Origin: Bdellovibrionales bacterium
Lineage (GTDB): Bacteria; Bdellovibrionota; Bdellovibrionia; Bdellovibrionales; JAUICD01
Direction of reading: 5' to 3'
NCBI GenBank assembly: GCA_965203275.1
Contig: OZ241865.1
Location: forward strand, 1,120,001 to 1,184,000
Length of the DNA stretch: 64,000 bases
Made by a program: the position numbers and the translations under genes
Part shown: positions 40,070 to 62,280 of the stretch, piece by piece
Numbering within the stretch: position 1 is the stretch's first letter
Layout: every line of letters starts with the position of its first letter
The notes under the pieces: model-generated
The model's database searches: none
What the model was told of the DNA's origin: nothing
What the model saw: the letters and a program-made list of their open reading frames with translations, nothing else

Positions 40070-40188
40070 TGCTGGCATCGTGCTACTTTCCCACAACGAG
40101 GTCGTTGTAGTATCATCGCCGCTGGTGGACTTAACTTCTGAGTTCGAAAAGGGATCAGGTGTACCCCCACCGCTATAAAAACCAGCAA
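40070..40188 (-). rRNA. rrf: 5S rRNA (stand-alone)
   Basis: Minus strand GCTGGTTTTTATAGCGGTGGGGGTACACCTGATCCCTTTTCGAACTCAGAAGTTAAG...GGGAAAGTAGCACGATGCCAGC, with complementary ends. Confidence 0.95.
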
Positions 40189-46107: not shown

Positions 46108-46330
46108 CTGTCCCCTCTCTCATTTTAGACTATTATCCTATATTGATAGACCTTAGAAGGTATTTTTTGCAATGAAACTGTCCCGTTTTGTCCCGTGTTT
46201 TTTATAAAAAAGCTCTTTTTGATAGAGACGGGACAAAACAGGACAAAACAGGACATTGTACCGAGTAAAACATTAAATTATTATAGTATTATTATATATT
46301 TATAAAAAAACGGGACAACGGGACAGGGGT
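46108..46330. repeat. Direct and inverted (C)GGGACA / GGACA short repeats
   Basis: TGTCCC x3 (46108, 46179, 46189) and GGACA x5 (46231-46325). Confidence 0.75.
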
Positions 46331-46584: not shown

Positions 46585-46707
46585 AGCCTGTCTTCTGTTA
46601 TTGAATAACATGGCAGGGTTTTATTTCTACTTTGGTAGATAAGATGATTTGTAAATTTATAAGTTTTACATGCTCAAAGAGAGGCTAGCCAACTACCTCT
46701 TTTTTTA
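46585..46707 (+). ncRNA. Candidate structured small RNA or leader
   Basis: Upstream promoter, three hairpins including TATTTCTAC-TTTG-GTAGAT, and a terminator AGAGG..CCTCT with a T-run. Confidence 0.4.
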
Positions 46708-46761: not shown

Positions 46762-47295
46762 ATGAGTGATGATGATTTTCCAAGCAATGGACCTACAAAA
46801 GAAAATGGCAATCCTTTAAAAGAATACTTTAAAGGAATTTTACCTTTCTTGCTACTGATTCTGAAAGAAATCAAGTCTAACTGGCCTTTATATTCAATAA
46901 TTTTGTTTGTGTGTTTTATCTTTCCACCACAAGACTACGGTTCTATTTCAACCATTATAGGTATTCTCTATATTCTTTTTAATGTTAAACTTATAACTCC
47001 AATAAAAAGTGAGATAAAAGAAATTAAAAAAGATGTTGAGAATACTAATAATGAGATAAAAGAAATTAAAAAAGATGTTGAGAATACTAATAATGAGATA
47101 AAAGAAATTAAAAAAGATGTTGAGAATACTAATAATGAGATAAAAGAAATTAAAAAAAATGTTGAGGATACTAATAATGAAATAAAAGAATTAAAGAGTA
47201 GTATTGATAAAAAATTTGAAGATGTAAGTATTGCTATCAAAGAGATAAATAATAACGATAAGTTTAAAAACAAGACGAATTCAAGTGATAATTAA
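46762..47295 (+). CDS. TM plus coiled-coil protein with 14-aa tandem repeats
   Basis: EIKEIKKDVENTNN x4 (42-bp units at ~47011-47190); hydrophobic N-terminal half. Confidence 0.75.
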   Translation: MSDDDFPSNGPTKENGNPLKEYFKGILPFLLLILKEIKSNWPLYSIILFVCFIFPPQDYGSISTIIGILYILFNVKLITPIKSEIKEIKKDVENTNNEIKEIKKDVENTNNEIKEIKKDVENTNNEIKEIKKNVEDTNNEIKELKSSIDKKFEDVSIAIKEINNNDKFKNKTNSSDN

Positions 47296-47477
47296 GATAA
47301 ACTTTCAAAGTCTTTTGTGGATATAATCATATCTTATTTAACACCATCAAAAACCCATCAGACCGCATGCTAAACCCATCAAAAACCCACTTTCACGATA
47401 TTTGACATACCTTAGTCTATTTGATATGATAATTGTAAGGTTTTGTAGAATTGGATTAATTTAACCAGGAGGTTATT

Positions 47478-47669
47478 ATGACTATGGAAGGAATGAGTAA
47501 CCAAATAGAAAGATTGAACATTGAGCTTAATTGTCTACAGAAGTTTAATGGTCACGCAAAGTTTAAAGCAAATGTAAATGATACACGCATAATAGCAAGA
47601 CAAGTGGAGCGTCGTCTTAATTTAATAAGAGAAATAGACGCGAACATGGAAGCAAACAAAGAGAAATAA
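47478..47669 (+). CDS. Small hypothetical protein
   Basis: RBS AGGAGG; upstream TTGACA..GATAAT promoter-like sequence. Confidence 0.55.
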   Translation: MTMEGMSNQIERLNIELNCLQKFNGHAKFKANVNDTRIIARQVERRLNLIREIDANMEANKEK

Positions 47670-47934
47670 GGGGGGAGTCCCACAGAGGCGGGGGCATGAT
47701 CACGCGAGGGTGGTCTTTACTCCATCAGGGTTTTATACTTCCTAACTTTTAGCATACCCCGGTCATTTTCAGATAGTTAAAACCGCTCTAATTTGAATAT
47801 CAGGATGCTGAAATCTCAAAAAAACATCAAAAACCCTCATTTTCACGACGCTTGATAGACAAAAGTCTATCTTTTTTAAAGTTTTTGCTGTATACAACCG
47901 AAAAAATAATAAATGATAAAAAAACGGGGGTTTT

Positions 47935-48333
47935 ATGAATTTGGAAGATACACCAGTTAATGGCGATCCGTCAGGATATGAATCAATCTCACAAAATAAT
48001 ACGAAGAAATCTTTTTTGTCATTTTTTGATTCTGATATTGTAAAAGCTATAGCATTTCTTTTAGGAACCCTGGGCAGTCTTTTTTTGATTCTTTTATTTG
48101 GTGTCGTTAGCGTTTCAGGGAGTTTGTACTTTATCGGCAACTTGTTAAATGCTCCTATTAAAGATCAAATGAGTGCAATTAAAGTGCAAGTAAATAGTAT
48201 TGAACAAAAATTTGATAGCATTGAAGTAAAATTAAACAATATGGATAAACAAAACAAAGCTATCATAGAGGGGTTAAAAAGTCAGGGTATTCAAGTTAAA
48301 TATCAAACGGCCAAAGATGGTGAGACCCTTTAA
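47935..48333 (+). CDS. Small TM plus coiled-coil protein, paralogue of 4359..4784
   Basis: KKSFLSFFDSDIVKAIAF...LNAPIKDQM. Confidence 0.75.
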   Translation: MNLEDTPVNGDPSGYESISQNNTKKSFLSFFDSDIVKAIAFLLGTLGSLFLILLFGVVSVSGSLYFIGNLLNAPIKDQMSAIKVQVNSIEQKFDSIEVKLNNMDKQNKAIIEGLKSQGIQVKYQTAKDGETL

Positions 48334-48344
48334 GGTTATAAGGA

Positions 48345-48373
48345 TTGAGTTTATCCAAAGAGGATGATATACT
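48345..48373 (+). promoter_or_regulatory. Sigma70 promoter driving the crRNA-like unit
   Basis: TTGAGT-17 nt-TATACT with extended TG; predicted start ~48380. Confidence 0.65.
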
Positions 48374-48379
48374 ATAATT

Positions 48380-48518
48380 AATTTCTACTGTTGTAGATTC
48401 ATATAAGTATAAGCAAGCAATTAACCATATCTAAAGATAGGGATTGACTTGTAAGTGGATATGAAAACTAAAGTTTCCATGATTCCATATTAAAAGAGGC
48501 CTTATGGTCTCTTTTTTT
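48380..48518 (+). ncRNA. Solitary Cas12a-type repeat unit / crRNA-like RNA
   Basis: Exact AATTTCTACTGTTGTAGAT at 48380-48398, then a unique segment, then a terminator AAAAGAGGCC-TTAT-GGTCTCTTTT (48492-48518). Confidence 0.7.
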
Positions 48519-49100: not shown

Positions 49101-49823
49101 ATGAAAAAATATATATTTGTCCTATTTATAATCTTGCTTGTTTCTAGTGATTCTCTATCTATGGGCCTATTGAGGACTTGTACTGAAGTCCTTATGCCAA
49201 ATTCAAAACAAAAAGTTATTGAGAGAGAATTATTGAAGCTAAATAATAGGTTATTAAATATTGTTTATACCGGTGAATCCCTTGTTCATGCCGGTGGCCG
49301 TATTAGATTGATAAAGAAAGTGCTAGAGGCTGGAGCTAACGTCAATTATCAAGACGACTATGGCTGGACGGCTTTAATGTTGGCTAGTGAGAATGGCTAT
49401 ATTGAAGCTGTAAGGGCATTGCTAGAGGCCGGAGCTAACGTCAATCTTCAAAACAAAAAAAGTCGCTATACGGCTTTAATGTTGGCTAGCCGTAAAGGCC
49501 ATATAGAAACTGTAAGGGCATTGCTAGCTTATGGAGCTAACGTCAATCATCAAGACAGATTTGGCAGTACGGCTTTAATTTGGGCTAGTTATGACGGCCC
49601 TATAGAAATTGTAAGGCTATTGCTAGCTTATGGAGCTAACGTCAATCATCAAGACAAAAAAGGCAGGACGGCTTTATATTATGCTGGTCGAGGTTATTTT
49701 GAAATTGCAATTGAAAGACTCTTAATCTCTCTTGACTTCATTCATTCTAGCATTCGTTCTCGTAGTCGAGAAGATTCTATCGAAATTGAAAGACTATTAA
49801 GAGAGGCCGGAGCTACAGAATAA
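49101..49823 (+). CDS. Secreted ankyrin-repeat protein
   Basis: Signal peptide; about four near-identical GANVN(H/Y)QD..G.TAL repeats. Confidence 0.92.
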   Translation: MKKYIFVLFIILLVSSDSLSMGLLRTCTEVLMPNSKQKVIERELLKLNNRLLNIVYTGESLVHAGGRIRLIKKVLEAGANVNYQDDYGWTALMLASENGYIEAVRALLEAGANVNLQNKKSRYTALMLASRKGHIETVRALLAYGANVNHQDRFGSTALIWASYDGPIEIVRLLLAYGANVNHQDKKGRTALYYAGRGYFEIAIERLLISLDFIHSSIRSRSREDSIEIERLLREAGATE

Positions 49824-49867
49824 TACCAATTCTATATTTGTCTCAAAATAATAATCTTTAGTCTTGA

Positions 49868-50170
49868 TTAAAGAATTTCTAATAAAAGATCGTCTAAGAG
49901 AGAATCACAACCCAATAAATGGTCGTCACTTAAGAGATAATCAGAGTCTAAAAGATACTCTAAGTAAAGATCATCGGCTAAAATACATTCGTCTAACGAA
50001 TGATCGTATCCTAAAGGTTTATCTAAAAAATACTCATTAAAAGGATAATCAAAACATCTATTTTGCTCAGGAATCACTACTACTATAGTAGTTTTAGAAG
50101 GATATAGCCAGAAAAGCACAGTGCTTATCAAAATCAAGATACCGATAATATTATTTTTTATAAAGCTCAT
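49868..50170 (-). CDS. Small membrane-anchored protein with an Asp/Leu-rich tail
   Basis: RBS GGAG; N-terminal TM; low-complexity DxLL repeats. Confidence 0.5.
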   Translation of the reverse strand: MSFIKNNIIGILILISTVLFWLYPSKTTIVVVIPEQNRCFDYPFNEYFLDKPLGYDHSLDECILADDLYLEYLLDSDYLLSDDHLLGCDSLLDDLLLEIL

Positions 50171-50311
50171 AAAGCTCCCATATCCATAAAATTCTTTTGA
50201 TATTTAGGCAAAGTCTTTCATAAAAATATCTACCATGCAAGCACTTTCCGTTTTAACATGTTGTGTTAGCAGGTTGCTTATTTTAACACGCCACTTCTTA
50301 AGTAAACCAAA

Positions 50312-50885
50312 GTGGGGAGACAGAGCTTGAATAGAATCAAACAATATGTAGCTTATTATCGAGTATCAACATCAAGGCAAACTATTGGCTTACAAACTCA
50401 AGAGACAATGGTTAAAACCTATCTTAAAGATAAATGGCCTCCTATTAAGTCATTCACAGAAAAGGAAAGTGGGAAGTGTGATAAGAATCGACCACAATTG
50501 CAATTGGCTTTGGAATATTGCAAACAATATAAGGCAACTTTGATCGTGGCTACATTGAGTCGGTTAAGTCGGGATTTGCATTTTATAACGTCCTTATCCA
50601 AATCTTAAGATAGATTTTGTATGTTGTGATATGCCTGATGCAACACCTCTGACAATAAACTTGATGGGAGCGATTGCTCAATATGAAAGAGAGACTGTAT
50701 CTAAGAGGACAAAAAGAGCTTTGGCAGAGTTAAAAAATCGTGGGGTGGAACTTGGAGCAAATAATCCTAAGGTTAAAGCTGGTCTTGAAAAATACCGAGA
50801 CAAACAAAAATACGTTTTTGTCCTAGTCTTGTCAAAAAAAATCAATAAATTGACGGGAGGGGACAAATGTCAGACAAAAAAATAA
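50312..50885 (+). pseudogene. Serine recombinase (resolvase/invertase), frameshifted
   Basis: YYRVST, ESG...RPQL and SRLSRD motifs, then a one-base shift at ~50606 to KIDFVCCDMP...ERETVSKRTKRAL...RGVELG. Confidence 0.85.
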
Positions 50886-55332: not shown

Positions 55333-57003
55333 CTATTCTGCGTGTTTAATAGTAAATTGATAAGCAAAAGATAATTTTTTAGGTGCTGTAGGGTCTTTTG
55401 AAACCGAAGTAAAGGTCGGTGTTAATGTTTGCACTTTCCCATTTCGTGCTATACCTTTTAAAGTCGATTGAATAAGAGCCTTTTGATTAGGGTGAGTTGT
55501 TTCACCTTCAATCTGAACATGATTATTTCGAATTAAAAGCCTTTTAACTTCTATCGTTTGATTTTTGTTGTTCATAAATTGACTACTGATCAAAGACAGA
55601 CTATCAAGGGCAGAAGGGATTTTTATAATTTCTGATAGATCTTGTTTGTTTTTAATATCTCTACGTTTTGTACGAATAAATTTTTGAATGCGTGGCAAAG
55701 AAACTCTCTTTAAATTAATCCCTGGAGCTTTTGATTGAGTAGATAAAGCATCATAACCTGCGTCCACTAAACTATCTGCTAAATTACTTCTGACCATTGT
55801 GTATATAAAGAAAGCAACAATACAAGCTGCTACTACTTTTATAGAGTGATTATAAGTTTTCCAAAATTTTTTTAAAGATTTATCTTGAAATGCAAATTCG
55901 TTCTTTCTAAAGTTTACAGGAGGATTCTTAGGTTGACGTAGACCTTCAATAGCCATGCCTATAGCCATACCCGATGTTCTTTCAGGTAGCTTCACTGATG
56001 TTTGATGATAGCGACAGTGATTTAAGAGTTCACAGGTTGTTCCTAATTGTTGTGACAAATAACCATCTATACTTGTCAACCCGCTCACTCCTCCTAAAAG
56101 CTTAATATGAGAAAATTGCAGTTTTTGCTTGCTAGATAAAGACAAAAGCATACGTTTGAGCAGAGAGATGAGATGATTTAAGCTTTCTTTAATAGTGTTA
56201 GAAAAAATAATTTGATCTTCAGAAGCGTCATTTTCAAGTTCTGGCAATAGTACAAAGCCTTTTTCTCTGAGTATTTGCATGGCTTCAGTCTCTGAAATTT
56301 CATATCTTTTCATAAGGTTTTTTATGATATTTAAGCCTCCAAAATATAGACTGTATGTTTGAATTAAATGTTTATCAATGTAAGTAGAAAAAAGCGTTCT
56401 TTGATGTCCAATCTCTAAGATTCCGTGTGCATTTCTTAGGTTAAAAGTATTTAATTCATCTTCGTCCTTAGCATAGATAGATGTAGGTAGTGACATGGGA
56501 GGTTCATTCCATATAGAAACTAAATTTGCAGTGGCTACGCCTTGGGCTGTTACCATTTTGGGATTGATCCCTGCATCAGTTGCTAAAGATAAAATTTCTT
56601 TAATATGTTGTTGAGGGCATATAAAGGCTAAAACTTCTGTAATCTGTCCAATAGTGGCAACCAACTTTGCTTCATAAATAGCATCATTATGATCAAAAGG
56701 AACTTCATCTACTAACTGAAATGGAAGGCTTTTGACAATTTTGTGTCTTTCTTTAAAAGGGAAAGCTTTATATCTGACACTTACAAACTCTTGTTTAACT
56801 GCAAAGACAAAAGAGGCTTTCCTGCCTTGATAGTGATGAGCTATTTTCCTTAAAGCGTCAATGATTAGGACTCTTGTATCAGCACTGAGGTCTTGGGTGA
56901 GTGGTATTTCGAGATAATCTACAACCCTATAGCTATGAGTTGTGGCTTCGACCTCAGCTACTTTAATAGAATAAGAACCAATATCAACAGCAACACTTCT
57001 CAT
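55333..57003 (-). CDS. GspL / PilM-like actin-fold protein with C-terminal PilN-like region
   Basis: VAVDIGSYSIKVAE, EIGH, FGG, LLGGVS and VNFRK motifs plus a TM helix. Confidence 0.8.
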   Translation of the reverse strand: MRSVAVDIGSYSIKVAEVEATTHSYRVVDYLEIPLTQDLSADTRVLIIDALRKIAHHYQGRKASFVFAVKQEFVSVRYKAFPFKERHKIVKSLPFQLVDEVPFDHNDAIYEAKLVATIGQITEVLAFICPQQHIKEILSLATDAGINPKMVTAQGVATANLVSIWNEPPMSLPTSIYAKDEDELNTFNLRNAHGILEIGHQRTLFSTYIDKHLIQTYSLYFGGLNIIKNLMKRYEISETEAMQILREKGFVLLPELENDASEDQIIFSNTIKESLNHLISLLKRMLLSLSSKQKLQFSHIKLLGGVSGLTSIDGYLSQQLGTTCELLNHCRYHQTSVKLPERTSGMAIGMAIEGLRQPKNPPVNFRKNEFAFQDKSLKKFWKTYNHSIKVVAACIVAFFIYTMVRSNLADSLVDAGYDALSTQSKAPGINLKRVSLPRIQKFIRTKRRDIKNKQDLSEIIKIPSALDSLSLISSQFMNNKNQTIEVKRLLIRNNHVQIEGETTHPNQKALIQSTLKGIARNGKVQTLTPTFTSVSKDPTAPKKLSFAYQFTIKHAE

Positions 57004-57355: not shown

Positions 57356-58564
57356 TCAAGGTTTAGATTTCATAAAGTCTTTAAGTTTTTGTATTGGTAG
57401 TTCTATTATTGTCTTTATCTCATCCCCTTTGTCTTTGAGGGGTCCATCCTCCGTAATGAAGGCTTTTGAATAAACACATAATGGCAAAAATAAGTCATCA
57501 TTCCTTTGATTCTCTTTACTGTGAATAAAACTGCCATGGCTTACTTTATCTATATGCTCTTGTTTGAGATCATTATAATATCTTATAGATGCATACGTTT
57601 TTAAAAATGGATATTTAAATTCTTTTCTAATATCTCTGTCAAATTGTTCTTTTAGAGCGTCAATTTTTTGTTGAGAAAGACCATGAAATTCTTTATCCTG
57701 CCCTCCGATTTCTTTTTTTATATATTGTACCTTTTTTGATATATCACTTAATTTTTTTTGTGTCATGGTTGTTTTAAGTAGTTTTTCCATTTCTTCTATC
57801 GTAAGATTTGTGTTGAGCAAATCATCTTCTTTATTTTCTATAAGAGTTAATTGTATTAATTTTTTATATATAATCCATTCTAAATATACAAAATGAAAAT
57901 GAAAGTATTTGGCTTTGAGATGGTTATATCCATTTTCTTTAAAATCTTTGTATATTTCATCGTTTTTTTCTCTCTGTTTTTTTGTTTTAGAATATAACTT
58001 GTCTATATTCTCTTTTTTTTCTTCAGGAGAAACACCAAAGATATCTAGTATATCCTTAGAAGAGAACTTTGGATTTATTTTATTATCCAATTCAATTAAG
58101 CTTTCCCTAGAACGTTTTAGATCTTTTAAAAAAATATTCATGACATAATCTGAATAGACTGGAATGCTTTCTATAATCCCATCACCATCAATTTCTTTTT
58201 TTATAAAAAAGCGATTATCTGGTAAGAATTTTAATTGTATTTTTTCCATCATTTCTTTGATAATCTCTAATCTTTCTATGCTTGATTCTTCCTTCTTGCA
58301 TTTCAGGCCTGCTATTTCTGATAACACCTGATAGGCTATAAAGACTATACCACTGCTTTCTTTTACTTTCTTACAAAAAGGGTCCATTTGTTTTTGATCT
58401 TTTTGAAATACATTTATTATATTGGTATCTATTAAAATCATCTTTGAATTGCCCTCTTGATCTCTAAAATTTATATTCATTTTCCACTTCCTTTCTTTGT
58501 TAATTAATTGATTAAATAACTCTTTTAAAAGAAGATACAAACGAAGAAAGTTTAATTTTTTCAT
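57356..58564 (-). CDS. PIN-domain-like hypothetical protein (start possibly 58480)
   Basis: ILIDTNI, VLSEI and C-terminal NDDL..AFITED acidic motifs fit a PIN fold with a large helical insert. Confidence 0.55.
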   Translation of the reverse strand: MKKLNFLRLYLLLKELFNQLINKERKWKMNINFRDQEGNSKMILIDTNIINVFQKDQKQMDPFCKKVKESSGIVFIAYQVLSEIAGLKCKKEESSIERLEIIKEMMEKIQLKFLPDNRFFIKKEIDGDGIIESIPVYSDYVMNIFLKDLKRSRESLIELDNKINPKFSSKDILDIFGVSPEEKKENIDKLYSKTKKQREKNDEIYKDFKENGYNHLKAKYFHFHFVYLEWIIYKKLIQLTLIENKEDDLLNTNLTIEEMEKLLKTTMTQKKLSDISKKVQYIKKEIGGQDKEFHGLSQQKIDALKEQFDRDIRKEFKYPFLKTYASIRYYNDLKQEHIDKVSHGSFIHSKENQRNDDLFLPLCVYSKAFITEDGPLKDKGDEIKTIIELPIQKLKDFMKSKP

Positions 58565-58651
58565 ATCTTTCTATTAATATATCAGAGACTAGAATACCTA
58601 ATAAAATTTTTAGAAAATCACTATTCCAATTGTTTCTTAACACAACATATC

Positions 58652-58786
58652 AAAAGACAAAAGAGACCACAAGTGGCCTCTTTTGTCTAAATACATAGAA
58701 AAGATTTAGTGTCGTATCTACAGAAATTAATACATACCAACAGTAGAAATTAAATATAGTATCTCATCTTATTCGGATAAAATTAA
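58652..58786 (-). ncRNA. Second crRNA-like module (interrupted Cas12a-type handle) with promoter and terminator
   Basis: Promoter region homologous to 48340-48394; AATTTCTACTGTTG + 16 nt + GTAGAT; terminator GACAAAAGAGGCCAC-TT-GTGGTCTCTTTTGTC. Confidence 0.55.
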
Positions 58787-59046
58787 TCCTTAGGTTTCTT
58801 ATCCTGTTTGGTTAATTGATTCGATAGATGTTGTGCGAATAAGGTTACTATCTCTTTATAGTTTTTATTGTTTTCCTCTGACAATTTATCCACTTTATTC
58901 TCAATCTTACTGATTTTATTCTCAAGCTTACTGATTTGTGTCGGTAAATGATTAGATACTTGATAAATTAAATAAATAACTAAAGGAAAAATTATCGTGG
59001 AGCTATGTTCTAAAAACAAAGTATATAAGAGACTTGCTGTTGTCAT
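58783..59046 (-). CDS. Small TM plus coiled-coil protein (NHLPTQI family)
   Basis: RBS AAGGAGG; TM helix; NHLPTQISKLENKISKIENK. Confidence 0.75.
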   Translation of the reverse strand: MTTASLLYTLFLEHSSTIIFPLVIYLIYQVSNHLPTQISKLENKISKIENKVDKLSEENNKNYKEIVTLFAQHLSNQLTKQDKKPKD

Positions 59047-61440: not shown

Positions 61441-62280
61441 TCCTTAATATCTCACTCAAAATGAGCCACACCTCTGGTGTGTTTTTGGGCATTGCTCTGA
61501 CAGCTATCGCTGTCTAAAAAGAGCAATGCCTCAAAAATCCGCTCATTTTGAGTAGAGCGGATCTCCTTGCTTCTGACACCATGTTAAGGAAACAAGGTAT
61601 GCTTTTAAAATGTTTTTAAGGAGCATGCGAGTTGCGATAAAGGAACTTTTTCCTTAACATTTCACTCAAAATGAGCCACACCTCTGGTGTGTTTTTGGGC
61701 ATTGCTCTGACAGCTATCGCTGTCCAAAAAGAGCAATGCCTCAAAAATCCGCTCATTTTGAGTAGAGCGGATCTCCTTGCTTCTGACACCATGTTAAGGA
61801 AACAAGGTATGCTTTTAAAATGTTTTTAGGGAGCATGCGAGTTGCGATAAAGGAACTTTTTCCTTAACATTTCACTCAAAATGAGCCACACCTCTGGTGT
61901 GTTTTTGGGCATTGCTCTGACAGCTATCGCTGTCCAAAAAGAGCAATGCCTCAAAAATCCGCTCATTTTGAGTAGAGCGGATCTCCTTGCTTCTGACACC
62001 ATGTTAAGGAAACAAGGTATGCTTTTAAAATGTTTTTAGGGAGCATGCGAGTTGCGATAAAGGAACTTTTTCCTTAACATTTCACTCAAAATGAGCCACA
62101 CCTCTGGTGTGTTTTTGGGCATTGCTCTGACAGCTATCGCTGTCCAAAAAGAGCAATGCCTCAAAAATCCGCTCATTTTGAGTAGAGCGGATCTCCTTGC
62201 TTCTGACACCATGTTAAGGAAACAAGGTATGCTTTTAAAATGTTTTTAGGGAGCATGCGAGTTGCGATAAAGGAACTTTA
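61441..62280 (-). repeat. Four near-identical 210-bp tandem repeats, each containing an inverted structured unit
   Basis: Units start at 61441, 61651, 61861 and 62071 and differ at only a few bases. Confidence 0.95.

Follow-up and report, generated by a model that had tools for sequence, protein, structure and literature searches.

A predicted Cas12a-type solitary-repeat crRNA-like gene family, dispersed over one Bdellovibrionales chromosome and associated with the 3' ends of a lineage-specific gene family

CRISPR repeat-like RNAs that stand apart from the spacers of an array have been described in several settings. Racrs, also called solitary repeat units (SRUs), are driven by their own promoters, and three type V-A Racrs are described as inhibiting a Cas12a system (PMC10651486). 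Of the SRUs, 2,103 are given as viral and 90 as plasmid-borne, and all GTDB prophages together contribute 188 (Camara-Wilpert et al., Nature 2023, PMC10651486). In both the viral CracrVA1 and the host CreR, one repeat-like unit is reportedly followed by a spacer-like stretch and then by a rho-independent terminator, the guide of CracrVA1 being 21 nt long (Liu et al., 10.1101/2024.10.29.618823). Shmakov et al. (10.1101/2023.03.03.530964 / PMC10120712) describe standalone repeat-like elements as crRNA-like RNAs with regulatory roles.

Here, we describe a module on the minus strand at 58.7 kb of the window (the whole 64,000-nt stretch of Bdellovibrionales DNA that was analysed), together with a sister module at 48.4 kb and their relatives elsewhere in the genome, whose coordinates carry the prefix G000:C1. 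We are highly confident that the module is one copy of a dispersed family of Cas12a-type solitary-repeat crRNA-like genes and, judging from the sequence, many guide-like RNAs are probably produced in this bacterium from outside the CRISPR array. The features are as follows, TM-CC denoting a family of small membrane/coiled-coil protein genes.

58783..59046, minus strand: TM-CC gene, 87 aa (family HMM E 1e-22)
58752..58791, minus strand: candidate promoter region, the upstream part of the reported module
58716..58751, minus strand: Cas12a-type crRNA 5' handle with a 17-nt loop insertion, AATTTCTAC-TGTT, 17 nt, GTAGAT
58685..58715, minus strand: spacer-like stretch of about 31 nt (ACGACAC...TTTAGAC), its 3' bases overlapping the extended terminator stem
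58651..58688, minus strand: rho-independent terminator, AGACAAAAGAGGCC-ACTT-GTGGTCTCTTTTGTCT and a T-rich tail (stem 58688-58655)
47935..48333, plus strand: TM-CC gene, 132 aa, directly upstream of the sister module
48340..48379, plus strand: predicted promoter of the sister module, TTGAGT (48345-48350), 17 nt, TG-extended TATACT (48368-48373), 6 nt, handle
48380..48398, plus strand: perfect 19-nt Cas12a-family crRNA handle, AATTTCTACTGTTGTAGAT, exact match
48399..48491, plus strand: variable spacer-like stretch of about 30 nt (48399-48428), then a two-hairpin tail of about 63 nt
48492..48518, plus strand: rho-independent terminator, AAAAGAGGCC-TTAT-GGTCTCTTTT and a T run, with a 10-pair stem in the minimum free energy (MFE) fold
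46622..46706, plus strand: third solitary unit, with a degenerate handle whose stem is intact (TATTTCTACTTTGGTAGAT), then 35 nt and a terminator
49101..49823, plus strand: ankyrin-repeat gene, in the island beside the sister module (49101..50885)
50312..50608 and 50631..50885, plus strand: serine-recombinase (resolvase) gene, split in two frames
G000:C1:245287-245700: CRISPR array with six spacers

The preliminary description had aligned the two main modules without gaps and, indeed, 58791-58738 (minus) and 48340-48393 (plus) are identical at 47 of 54 positions, a count that takes in the homologous promoter regions 58752-58791 and 48340-48379 and the first handle bases. It had also stated that the modules share a terminator and differ in the middle. 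The AAAAGAGGCC/GGTCTCTTTT terminator is found at both 48492-48518 and 58688-58655, and the distance from handle to terminator stem is 97 nt at 48.4 kb versus about 31 nt at 58.7 kb. In the terminator scan, the 58.7-kb hairpin has 15 pairs, six of them G-C, with 0.1 expected in shuffles; a simple scan missed 48492-48518, probably since the stem extension absorbs the T run. At the sister module, the promoter scan places TG before the second hexamer of the match at 48345..48373, and the geometry of this promoter puts the expected start point at 48380.

The handle at 58.7 kb is split by an insert, as the preliminary description had noticed, although the insert measures 17 nt rather than 16 and sits in the hairpin loop. 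The alignment gives the 12 other copies 17 gap columns at this place, and the insert brings the handle (58751-58716) to 36 nt against the canonical 19, with both stem arms kept and a loop of 21 nt. The promoter consists of a -35-like TTAATT (58786-58781), which overlaps the TAA stop codon of the TM-CC gene upstream so that this codon falls within the promoter region, and a TG-n-GATACT -10 (58766-58758) 6 nt from the handle; the consensus scan leaves it uncalled because its -35 matches at only three of six positions. Against a covariance model of promoter and handle the copy scores 61.7 bits (E 7.7e-8), and the fold z-score of the whole RNA is -5.7, with the canonical 5-bp handle hairpin absent from the MFE fold. 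Given the loop insertion and the weaker -35, this copy is probably a decaying or altered member of the family, and the earlier wording, decaying or a variant, was reasonable. The degenerate handle at 46622-46640, a site that the preliminary description did not name, has its own terminator, and its unit lies about 55 nt upstream of the TM-CC gene 46762-47295. In the Rfam search of the window the modules reached no family, and the sole match was a 5S rRNA (40070-40186).

The identity of the handle is clear. The sequence at 48380-48398 equals the last 19 nt of the repeat in the genome's own array (G000:C1:245304 onwards) at all 19 positions, and with its AAUUUCUAC-loop-GUAGAU form, 19-nt length and 5-bp stem it is a Cas12a-family (type V-A) handle, which bears out the description of the module as crRNA-like. 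The preliminary description had argued against chance, and the counts agree: with up to three mismatches, AATTTCTACTGTTGTAGAT has two matches in the window versus 0.05 expected, and none of 100 shuffles reached two, while the 26-nt promoter-handle junction matches both window sites versus 0.00 expected. Across the whole genome, the handle pattern at up to two mismatches gives 19 matches and the reversed control pattern none. A chance hairpin is thus ruled out by the 19/19 identity to the array repeat and by these control counts.

The cassette was said to be recurrent, and about 19 solitary handles occur in the genome outside the six-spacer array. This number derives from 20 non-array matches with up to three mismatches, less three that were dropped as chance matches lacking promoter or terminator context (152496, 1836048 and 2150112), plus two loop-length variants from a profile search. 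The covariance model finds 15 copies here; in 149 other genomes of the order it matches only in one, G001, where all five matches lie in or just beside the CRISPR array. Among the public runs listed for this DNA there was no RNA run, and contigs from four runs break at the modules, since the modules are repeats.

As in the crRNAs of a type V-A array, a guide-sized stretch comes after a 19-nt 5' handle, and the handle is the same; unlike array crRNAs, the units are scattered, each with its own promoter-like site and most with a terminator, and they are between 18 kb and more than 1 Mb away from the CRISPR-cas locus. Each unit is a single handle, and the only array is that at G000:C1:245304-245636 with a truncated repeat. 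The solitary units lack the upstream 17 nt of the repeat, a leader and a following repeat, apart from the copy at G000:C1:363994, in which a degenerate second repeat follows in the manner of a one-spacer mini-array. Dispersed fragments of a CRISPR array are ruled out, the 5' half of the repeat and the second repeat being missing, and a REP-type selfish hairpin repeat is ruled out by the sequence, the promoter and terminator context and the tie to one gene family.

The preliminary reading hinged on the handle being better conserved than its flanks, and this is what we find. In 153 pairwise comparisons among 18 copies the handle averages 0.85 identity, well above the promoter (0.59), the upstream coding sequence (0.52) and the first 20 guide nucleotides (0.50); random genome segments give 0.44-0.50. 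Thirteen of the 19 handle columns are invariant across 17 rows (16 solitary copies and one array repeat), and none of the 50 stem cells in the 10 distinct rows is unpaired. The sole stem change is C to U, which preserves a G-U pair, and the other changes fall in the loop or the first 3 nt.

These figures bear on the possibility that the units are relics, i.e. that a promoter-handle piece entered an ancestral TM-CC 3'UTR once or a few times and was then copied passively through duplication and gene conversion, with no present function. Recent duplication or gene conversion could account for part of the handle conservation, and compensatory double changes in the stem are absent among the aligned copies. 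Some copies are visibly degraded, namely those with the 58.7-kb loop insert and the three-mismatch handles at 46622 and G000:C1:958667, and some have no clear promoter. The tail of about 63 nt in the 48.4-kb module is common to other TM-CC 3'UTRs, and the shared tail and terminator also follow handle-less family genes (four examples), which are sister paralogues of the handle-bearing ones. Because the tail and terminator occur without a handle, conservation of the terminator is in itself no evidence for an RNA; of the promoter, handle and terminator that had been presented as jointly conserved, the conservation stands but this use of the terminator does not. Against passive copying, the adjoining coding sequence and guide are much less conserved than the handle, and every change spares not only the stem but also the 3' GTAGAT and TTCTA, whereas neutral decay would not spare exactly the part held by Cas12a-family proteins. 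The spacing between -10 and handle, fixed at 6 nt in 10 of 13 aligned copies (4 nt shorter in the other three), points the same way. We therefore consider a purely relic origin distinctly unlikely.

The CRISPR-cas locus offers a likely partner protein for the units. Its cas12a is N-terminally truncated, covering only model positions 326-1287, cas1 is truncated and cas4 is a remnant. By contrast, a Cas12a3 homologue of 1325 aa is encoded in one open frame (G000:C1:238802-242779) and aligns along its length to solved Cas12a3 structures (E 1e-71 and 2e-58), and it is the only intact Cas12a-family effector in the genome. Cas12a3 is a recently described RNA-triggered nuclease that acts on tRNA tails. 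Since cas12a is truncated and the Cas12a3 homologue intact, the latter is the likely binder of the handle.

The family promoter has the layout TTGAGT, 17 nt, TG-TATACT, 6 nt, handle. Promoters were called by consensus match only, so their activity is putative, but this sigma-70-type arrangement with an extended -10 would start transcription at the first base of the handle. At 10 of the 19 copies a TM-CC stop codon precedes the handle by 13-125 nt, and only promoter-like sequence intervenes. Because there is no terminator between the family gene and the handle, the TM-CC mRNA should read through it, and the handle might then act in cis: Cas12a3 would cut the read-through mRNA just 5' of the handle, coupling TM-CC stability or expression to Cas12a3 and releasing a crRNA. 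The Cas12a3 clade is described as retaining crRNA-processing residues (PMC12851939). The argument is, however, purely architectural, at the other nine copies no family gene is immediately upstream, and an internal promoter starting at the first handle base would be unnecessary if processing were the purpose. We regard such a cis-acting role as very unlikely.

The stretch after the handle is 17-35 nt long, except in three copies where about 25-30 nt are followed by the conserved two-hairpin tail. Copies of this long type are near-identical in promoter, handle and tail and differ mainly in the first 21-30 nt past the handle. Most copies end in a rho-independent terminator. Five RNAs were folded, giving a handle hairpin plus terminator with z-scores from -2.2 to -5.7; the canonical hairpin forms in four, and the spacer-like stretch is unpaired in three.

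These properties raise the possibility that the units are hard-wired guides, that is, fixed crRNA genes for Cas12a3, each sensing a particular foreign or host transcript and leading to tRNA-tail cleavage and growth arrest, an 'innate' set replacing the defunct adaptation machinery. The state of the locus fits this, with cas12a3 intact, cas1, cas4 and cas12a degraded and an array of only six spacers. So do the stretches themselves, which have the right size for a Cas12a-family guide, the confinement of variation in the long copies, and the mini-array-like arrangement at G000:C1:363994. On the other hand, several short guides are related to each other and to the 3'UTR tail, which looks like shared ancestry; the middle is variable, as the preliminary description had it, but not freely so.

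The searches for targets also speak against hard-wired guides. When the first 20 nt of 18 guides were compared with the genome at up to four mismatches, only the modules themselves and chance-level AT-rich matches were found, and there were no other sites at 16/20 or better. For the 58.7-kb guide in particular, no other genome site has fewer than four mismatches to its first 20 nt, viral contigs contain no exact match to its 20-mer, and comparison with phages gave chance-level matches only (E 3). Three guide 20-mers had no exact matches in viral contigs, and a BLAST search of GenBank phages with the two window guides gave no match better than E 0.9. On balance, hard-wired sensing is a rather unlikely reading.

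The architecture is that of the type V-A Cracr/CreR RNAs, as described: the hairpin-forming handle is kept, a spacer-like stretch of about 21 nt follows, and each has its own promoter and a terminator. In those RNAs, however, at least 9-10 PAM-proximal nucleotides of the spacer-like stretch match the cas promoter beside a PAM, and CreR is placed inside the cas locus (10.1101/2023.03.10.532045), as are the elements of Shmakov et al., whereas the copies here lie outside it, distant and many. Comparing 18 guide strings with the 13-kb cas region, we found no PAM-flanked seed of at least 10 nt in the cas12a/cas12a3 intergenic region, where the only match, an 8-nt seed, has no PAM. The rest of the region contains 10-12-nt seeds at about the estimated chance rate, among them one 10-nt seed with a T-rich PAM in a neighbouring ORF, outside the intergenic region. 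Repression of the cas promoter in the Cracr/CreR manner therefore finds no support here.

The resemblance to the Racrs, as far as these are described, lies in a single repeat mimic directly 3' of a predicted promoter, away from cas genes and matched to the cas subtype of the host. Racrs, including RacrVA1-3, are described on phages, prophages and plasmids and, like the Cracr RNAs, as one or a few per element, while here about 19 copies share a chromosome, situated in 3'UTRs of paralogous genes and in islands where no phage genes were found. Moreover, the likely partner is Cas12a3 and not Cas12a, and inhibition, a feature of Racrs, is putative here. A strict promoter-plus-handle pattern had no matches in viral or in genome contigs. 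Solitary units with a promoter-like site and a handle do occur in metagenomic contigs, several with a terminator-like hairpin, and six of seven such look-alikes that were checked have a mobile-element-type or phage-family (PHROG) match on the contig, including integrase, Arc-like repressor, DUF932, Fic and PHROG-only genes.

The TM-CC genes sit in small islands and, in those that we scanned, phage structural, replication and conjugation genes were not found. A gene set of ankyrin, HNH, resolvase and IS256-type transposase genes recurs around three other modules, and of three resolvase genes seen, those in the window and at locus L088 are broken or truncated. The island genes are in keeping with the competitor reading given below, but with no phage or conjugation genes found in what was scanned and the resolvases mostly broken, an anti-CRISPR carried by an active mobile element would be no more than a possibility. 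PADLOC found nothing among the neighbouring uncharacterised genes.

The TM-CC family is expanded only in this genome, and many of its members, including two tandem arrays of eight or more genes, have no crRNA-like RNA. A word-based homologue search with a TM-CC protein returned only the protein itself, whereas a profile search gave 109 proteins at E 0.001 or better in 1.8 billion, none of them at 1e-30 or better. Pfam and PHROGs yielded sub-threshold coiled-coil noise only, and the ESM Atlas scores, at 0.84 or below, are leads only. Small single-pass membrane proteins are a common type of toxin. The pairing of such a gene with a crRNA-like RNA brings to mind CreTA-like addiction, in which the RNA guides a Cas effector to repress the toxin and loss of the effector kills the cell; a protein toxin repressed by CRISPR has been reported (10.1101/2024.01.05.574328). 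In CreTA, the spacer-like stretch of the antitoxin RNA partly matches the promoter of the neighbouring toxin gene. Here, in the 3 kb surrounding each module, cognate seeds reach at best 0-10 nt, the non-cognate means spanning 0.7-8.8 nt, so that no cognate specificity is seen. The DNA-binding Cas12a is truncated, and the many family genes without an RNA also argue against addiction, which we consider highly improbable.

The reading that we tentatively favour, while placing it a little short of an even chance, is that the solitary RNAs compete with or re-programme the crRNAs. The RNAs would be made with an already 'mature' 5' end, by transcription from the first base of the handle, and would be bound by the Cas12a3 homologue, as the sole intact Cas12a-family effector here. 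By analogy with Racr and Cracr/CreR, they would then compete with, or re-programme, the few crRNAs derived from the array; the solitary units would not be products of adaptation. The presence of an intact cas12a3 next to defunct adaptation genes is at least as well explained by a host that makes use of the RNAs as by one that they inhibit.

A further, unlikely reading is that Cas12a3 has been domesticated in this lineage after the decay of cas12a and the adaptation genes. The approximately 19 fixed, promoter-driven crRNA-like genes, lying in TM-CC 3'UTRs and co-transcribed with them, would then be what mainly programmes it. They would form a chromosomal network of guides that serves hard-wired sensing or post-transcriptional control, and not adaptive immunity or anti-CRISPR.

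Promoter-driven solitary repeats have been known as anti-CRISPR RNAs of phages and plasmids and as regulators inside cas loci. What differs here is that the same RNA design occurs about 19 times on one chromosome, tied to a lineage-specific gene family at its 3' ends, in a genome where no intact effector other than Cas12a3 could hold the handle. The layout, a protein gene with a crRNA-like unit in its 3'UTR, is a natural one. As decoys, the RNAs would be self-borne or island-borne silencers of a growth-arresting CRISPR effector, and an extreme example of such silencing; as guides, they would form a natural hard-wired set for Cas12a3. Either way, they offer short, defined natural RNAs for studying how Cas12a3 is controlled in cells.

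The solitary handles described here, 19-nt Cas12a-family crRNA 5′ hairpins lying outside a CRISPR array, sit in modules made of a promoter-like site, the handle, a spacer-like stretch (the guide) and, in most copies, a terminator. The preliminary description had proposed that two modules of the window are homologous, and the strings it quoted are found at 58791-58738 (minus strand) and 48340-48393 (plus strand), identical at 47 of 54 positions without gaps. The 3′ part common to both reads AATTTCTACTGTTG... The handles of the window are as follows:

46622-46706: third handle, degenerate (TATTTCTACTTTGGTAGAT), with its own terminator
48340-48518, plus strand: module with the full handle AATTTCTACTGTTGTAGAT at 48380-48398
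58791-58651, minus strand: reported copy, with its handle at 58751-58716

The 19-mer handle has two matches in the window at up to three mismatches, against 0.05 expected from shuffling, and the 26-nt junction of promoter and handle is present at both, with an expectation of 0.00. Both units also finish, as had been claimed, with a AAAAGAGGCC-loop-GGTCTCTTTT hairpin followed by a T run. The handle of the reported copy is indeed split by an insert, for which 16 nt had been given; since this handle spans 36 nt, the insert is 17 nt, one above the earlier count. It lies in the loop, between both stem arms. Owing to this loop insertion, a weaker -35 and a non-canonical MFE fold, the reported copy is more likely than the other copies to be impaired.

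A handle search of the genome studied (G000, contig C1), allowing up to three mismatches, gave 26 matches: six in the array, 17 solitary and three set aside. The last (152496, 1836048 and 2150112) were taken as chance matches, as their mismatches break the motif and they lack promoter and terminator context. Two further copies with altered loop length, the reported one and one at 1916923 with a 5-nt loop, came from a profile search and bring the solitary copies to 19; a promoter-plus-handle covariance model trained on 13 copies recovered 15 in this genome. The typical promoter has a -35 TTGAGT, 17 nt, a TG-extended -10 TATACT and exactly 6 nt before the handle, which places the predicted transcription start at the first A of the handle. 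The spacer-like stretch is typically 17-35 nt and is followed by a rho-independent terminator, none being evident in 3 of the 19 copies within the stretch read. In three ‘long’ copies (960068, window 48380 and 2428091), some 21-30 variable nt instead lead into a conserved tail of two hairpins, and the terminator follows. At C1:363994-364090 (locus L007), a degenerate second repeat AATTTCTACTTCCGCAGAC lies 41 nt past the solitary unit, which looks like a promoter-driven one-spacer mini-array.

Mean pairwise identity of module segments (18 copies, 153 pairs; one recent duplicate left out)
Handle: 0.85
45-nt promoter region: 0.59
Guide, first 20 nt: 0.50
Upstream coding sequence: 0.52
Random genome segments: 0.44-0.50

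The handle is thus better conserved than its flanks (0.85 versus 0.50-0.59), the opposite of the pattern that would have counted against the preliminary description. Aligning 16 canonical-length solitary handles with one array repeat (17 sequences) shows no variation in 13 of 19 columns and pairing in all 50 stem cells; the sole stem change, C9 to U, retains a G-U pair, and the remaining changes are confined to the loop or the first three bases. As no double compensatory stem change occurs among these 17 sequences, the pattern is evidence of constraint and not proof of covariation. The modules very probably form a Cas12a-type solitary-repeat RNA gene family; it is improbable that they are relics.

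The genome, a single contig of 2.57 Mb on which the window occupies C1:1120001-1184000, has one CRISPR array (C1:245304-245636), made up of six complete repeats plus a seventh that is truncated. The last 19 nt of its repeat, ATTGAAAGGGACTTATAAATTTCTACTGTTGTAGAT, are the solitary handle motif, which is the part kept as the 5′ handle in mature Cas12a-family crRNAs. The array belongs to the following locus:

C1:235349-245700 (L020): CRISPR-cas locus with truncated cas12a, intact Cas12a3 homologue, cas4 remnant, truncated cas1 (a 245-aa fragment), whole cas2 and 6-spacer array

The sole cas12a match is a 982-aa frame with a 504 bp spacer upstream; it covers only positions 326-1287 of the TIGR04330 model, so the N-terminal third is absent. 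An intact 1325-aa frame, divergent from cas12a, is the Cas12a3 homologue: among solved structures only Cas12a3 proteins match it (E 1.2e-71 and 2e-58), and it aligns to Cas12a3 in several blocks along its length, keeping GIDRG and LED, presumably RuvC motifs. Among five array-bearing relatives, G001, G187 and G181 carry a cas12a of full or nearly full length together with a Cas12a3 homologue on one strand, in the same region as the array; G108 has only the Cas12a3 homologue and G011 only cas12a. Judging from the three genomes with both effectors, the pairing looks ancestral and the genome studied looks to have lost a working cas12a.

Cas12a3 has been described as an RNA-guided, RNA-triggered nuclease that cuts tRNA 3′ tails and arrests growth; it grips the crRNA pseudoknot like Cas12a and prefers a purine-rich flank (PMC12851939). 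Our tentative reading, held at slightly less than even confidence, is that the modules would act as a crRNA-like competitor or re-programmer of Cas12a3. That they are instead hard-wired Cas12a3 guides is unlikely, and a CreTA-like module is very improbable. No target of the guides was found. For 18 guides, the first 20 nt match the rest of the genome only at chance-level AT-rich sites; viral contigs yielded zero exact matches to three 20-mers, and phage BLAST gave only chance-level matches. The cas12a/cas12a3 intergenic region is free of PAM-flanked seeds reaching 10 nt, and the seeds around a module's own genes do not exceed in length those of non-cognate regions.

Several short guides resemble one another and the tail of the TM-CC family, whose genes encode small proteins that combine a single membrane helix with a coiled coil. 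In 10 of 19 copies the handle starts 13-125 nt past a TM-CC stop codon, and 16 copies have such a gene within 2 kb. The family has 78 six-frame matches in this genome (E <=0.01) and one or two borderline matches in each of four other genomes of the taxonomic family; searched against 1.8 billion proteins, its profile matches 109 with E <=0.001, of which none reaches 1e-30. Since handle-less TM-CC genes may have the same tail and terminator (four examples), these are the family's own 3′UTR, and the promoter-handle piece has either been inserted there or been lost from it. In a protein tree of 49 members, scored by regular expression with one handle-bearing gene counted as handle-less, the two kinds of gene are interleaved and well-supported branches require at least three handle-state changes. 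That the modules are a Cas12a3-processed 3′UTR element is quite improbable, less so only than the CreTA-like case. Tandem TM-CC arrays of at least eight genes each, without Cas12a handles, occur at C1:209338-212474 and 654134-659491.

Ankyrin-repeat genes, a 105-aa HNH endonuclease gene, serine recombinases (two of three seen broken or truncated) and an IS256-type transposase recur near modules; the many ankyrin genes would be compatible with host association. At the island edge in the window, adjoining a Na+/H+ exchanger gene, short direct and inverted repeats (GTCCCGTTTTGTCCCG / GGGACAAAACAGGACAAAACAGGACA / ACGGGACAACGGGACAGGGG) cluster at 46170-46330 and could be a recombination or binding site. 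A motif CATCAAAAACCC..TTTCACGA..TTGA at 47340-47400 and 47810-47870, possibly a shared operator, precedes the island genes 47478-47669 and 47935-48333, its first occurrence extending into the region's best promoter match (47402-47430). Three successive 58-aa frames at 61616-62249 (minus strand), with 52-aa frames opposite, have a 210 bp period and hence mark a tandem DNA repeat. Directly downstream of the reported module, a 402-aa gene (57356-58564, minus strand) without a match in Pfam, PHROGs or PADLOC opens a cluster of type IV pilus genes (PilM-like at 55333-57003).

Of 201 genomes examined from the order, 37 contain the handle at up to two mismatches. Multiple matches are arrays (G001, G011, G108, G181 and G187), and single two-mismatch matches are about as frequent as reversed-control matches. 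G001, of the same genus, carries an array with about 59 repeats and, besides, a single reverse-strand handle match; it has no dispersed modules, whole-module BLAST matching only the array and chance-level words, and the five weak covariance-model matches (2603935-2607921) all lie in or beside the array. G175, from another family, has two isolated handles far apart (L050:1501-1519 and L118:1001-1019) and no array matched in the handle pattern search, so single chromosomal solitary handles occur elsewhere in the order.

With a looser promoter-handle pattern, 15 loci were recovered from metagenomes, and four of these are arrays. Twelve loci were looked at more closely, 11 singles and an array of two repeats; of the singles, at least eight are solitary, each with a promoter-like upstream and several with a terminator-like hairpin. 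Six of seven loci checked for gene context have a mobile-element-type or phage-family (PHROG) match, the neighbours being integrase, Arc-like repressor, DUF932, Fic and PHROG-only genes. Across 185,579 species genomes, the pattern found eight loci, four arrays and four singles, the singles each in a different genome. These look-alikes indicate that the RNA design exists elsewhere; multi-copy chromosomal expansion was found only in the genome studied in our order, metagenomic and species-genome searches. A Planctomycetaceae MAG contig (CAYZMZ010000086.1; L120:676-1030) carries a tandem run of nine or more Cas12a-type handles, one every 30 nt, adjoined by a canonical handle; as only about 11 nt separate them, the tandem handles have no real spacers and may be a multi-handle decoy array.

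Like type V-A crRNA-like RNAs, the modules combine a single repeat-like unit with a spacer-like stretch and a rho-independent terminator, the layout given for CracrVA1 and host CreR (10.1101/2024.10.29.618823), but no cas-promoter match of the kind that defines Cracr and CreR was found. They share the architecture of Racrs, promoter-driven solitary repeat units, among them three V-A examples that inhibit a Cas12a system (PMC10651486). As to carriage on a mobile element, they lie near recombinase, IS256-type and HNH genes, with no phage structural genes found around them. The literature on Cas12a3, Racr/solitary repeats and CreR/crRNA-like RNAs, in the portions available, describes no such dispersed chromosomal family, which is not proof of absence. 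New here are the copy number, the chromosomal spread and the fusion to one gene family's 3′UTR and, likely, Cas12a3 as the partner of solitary handles.
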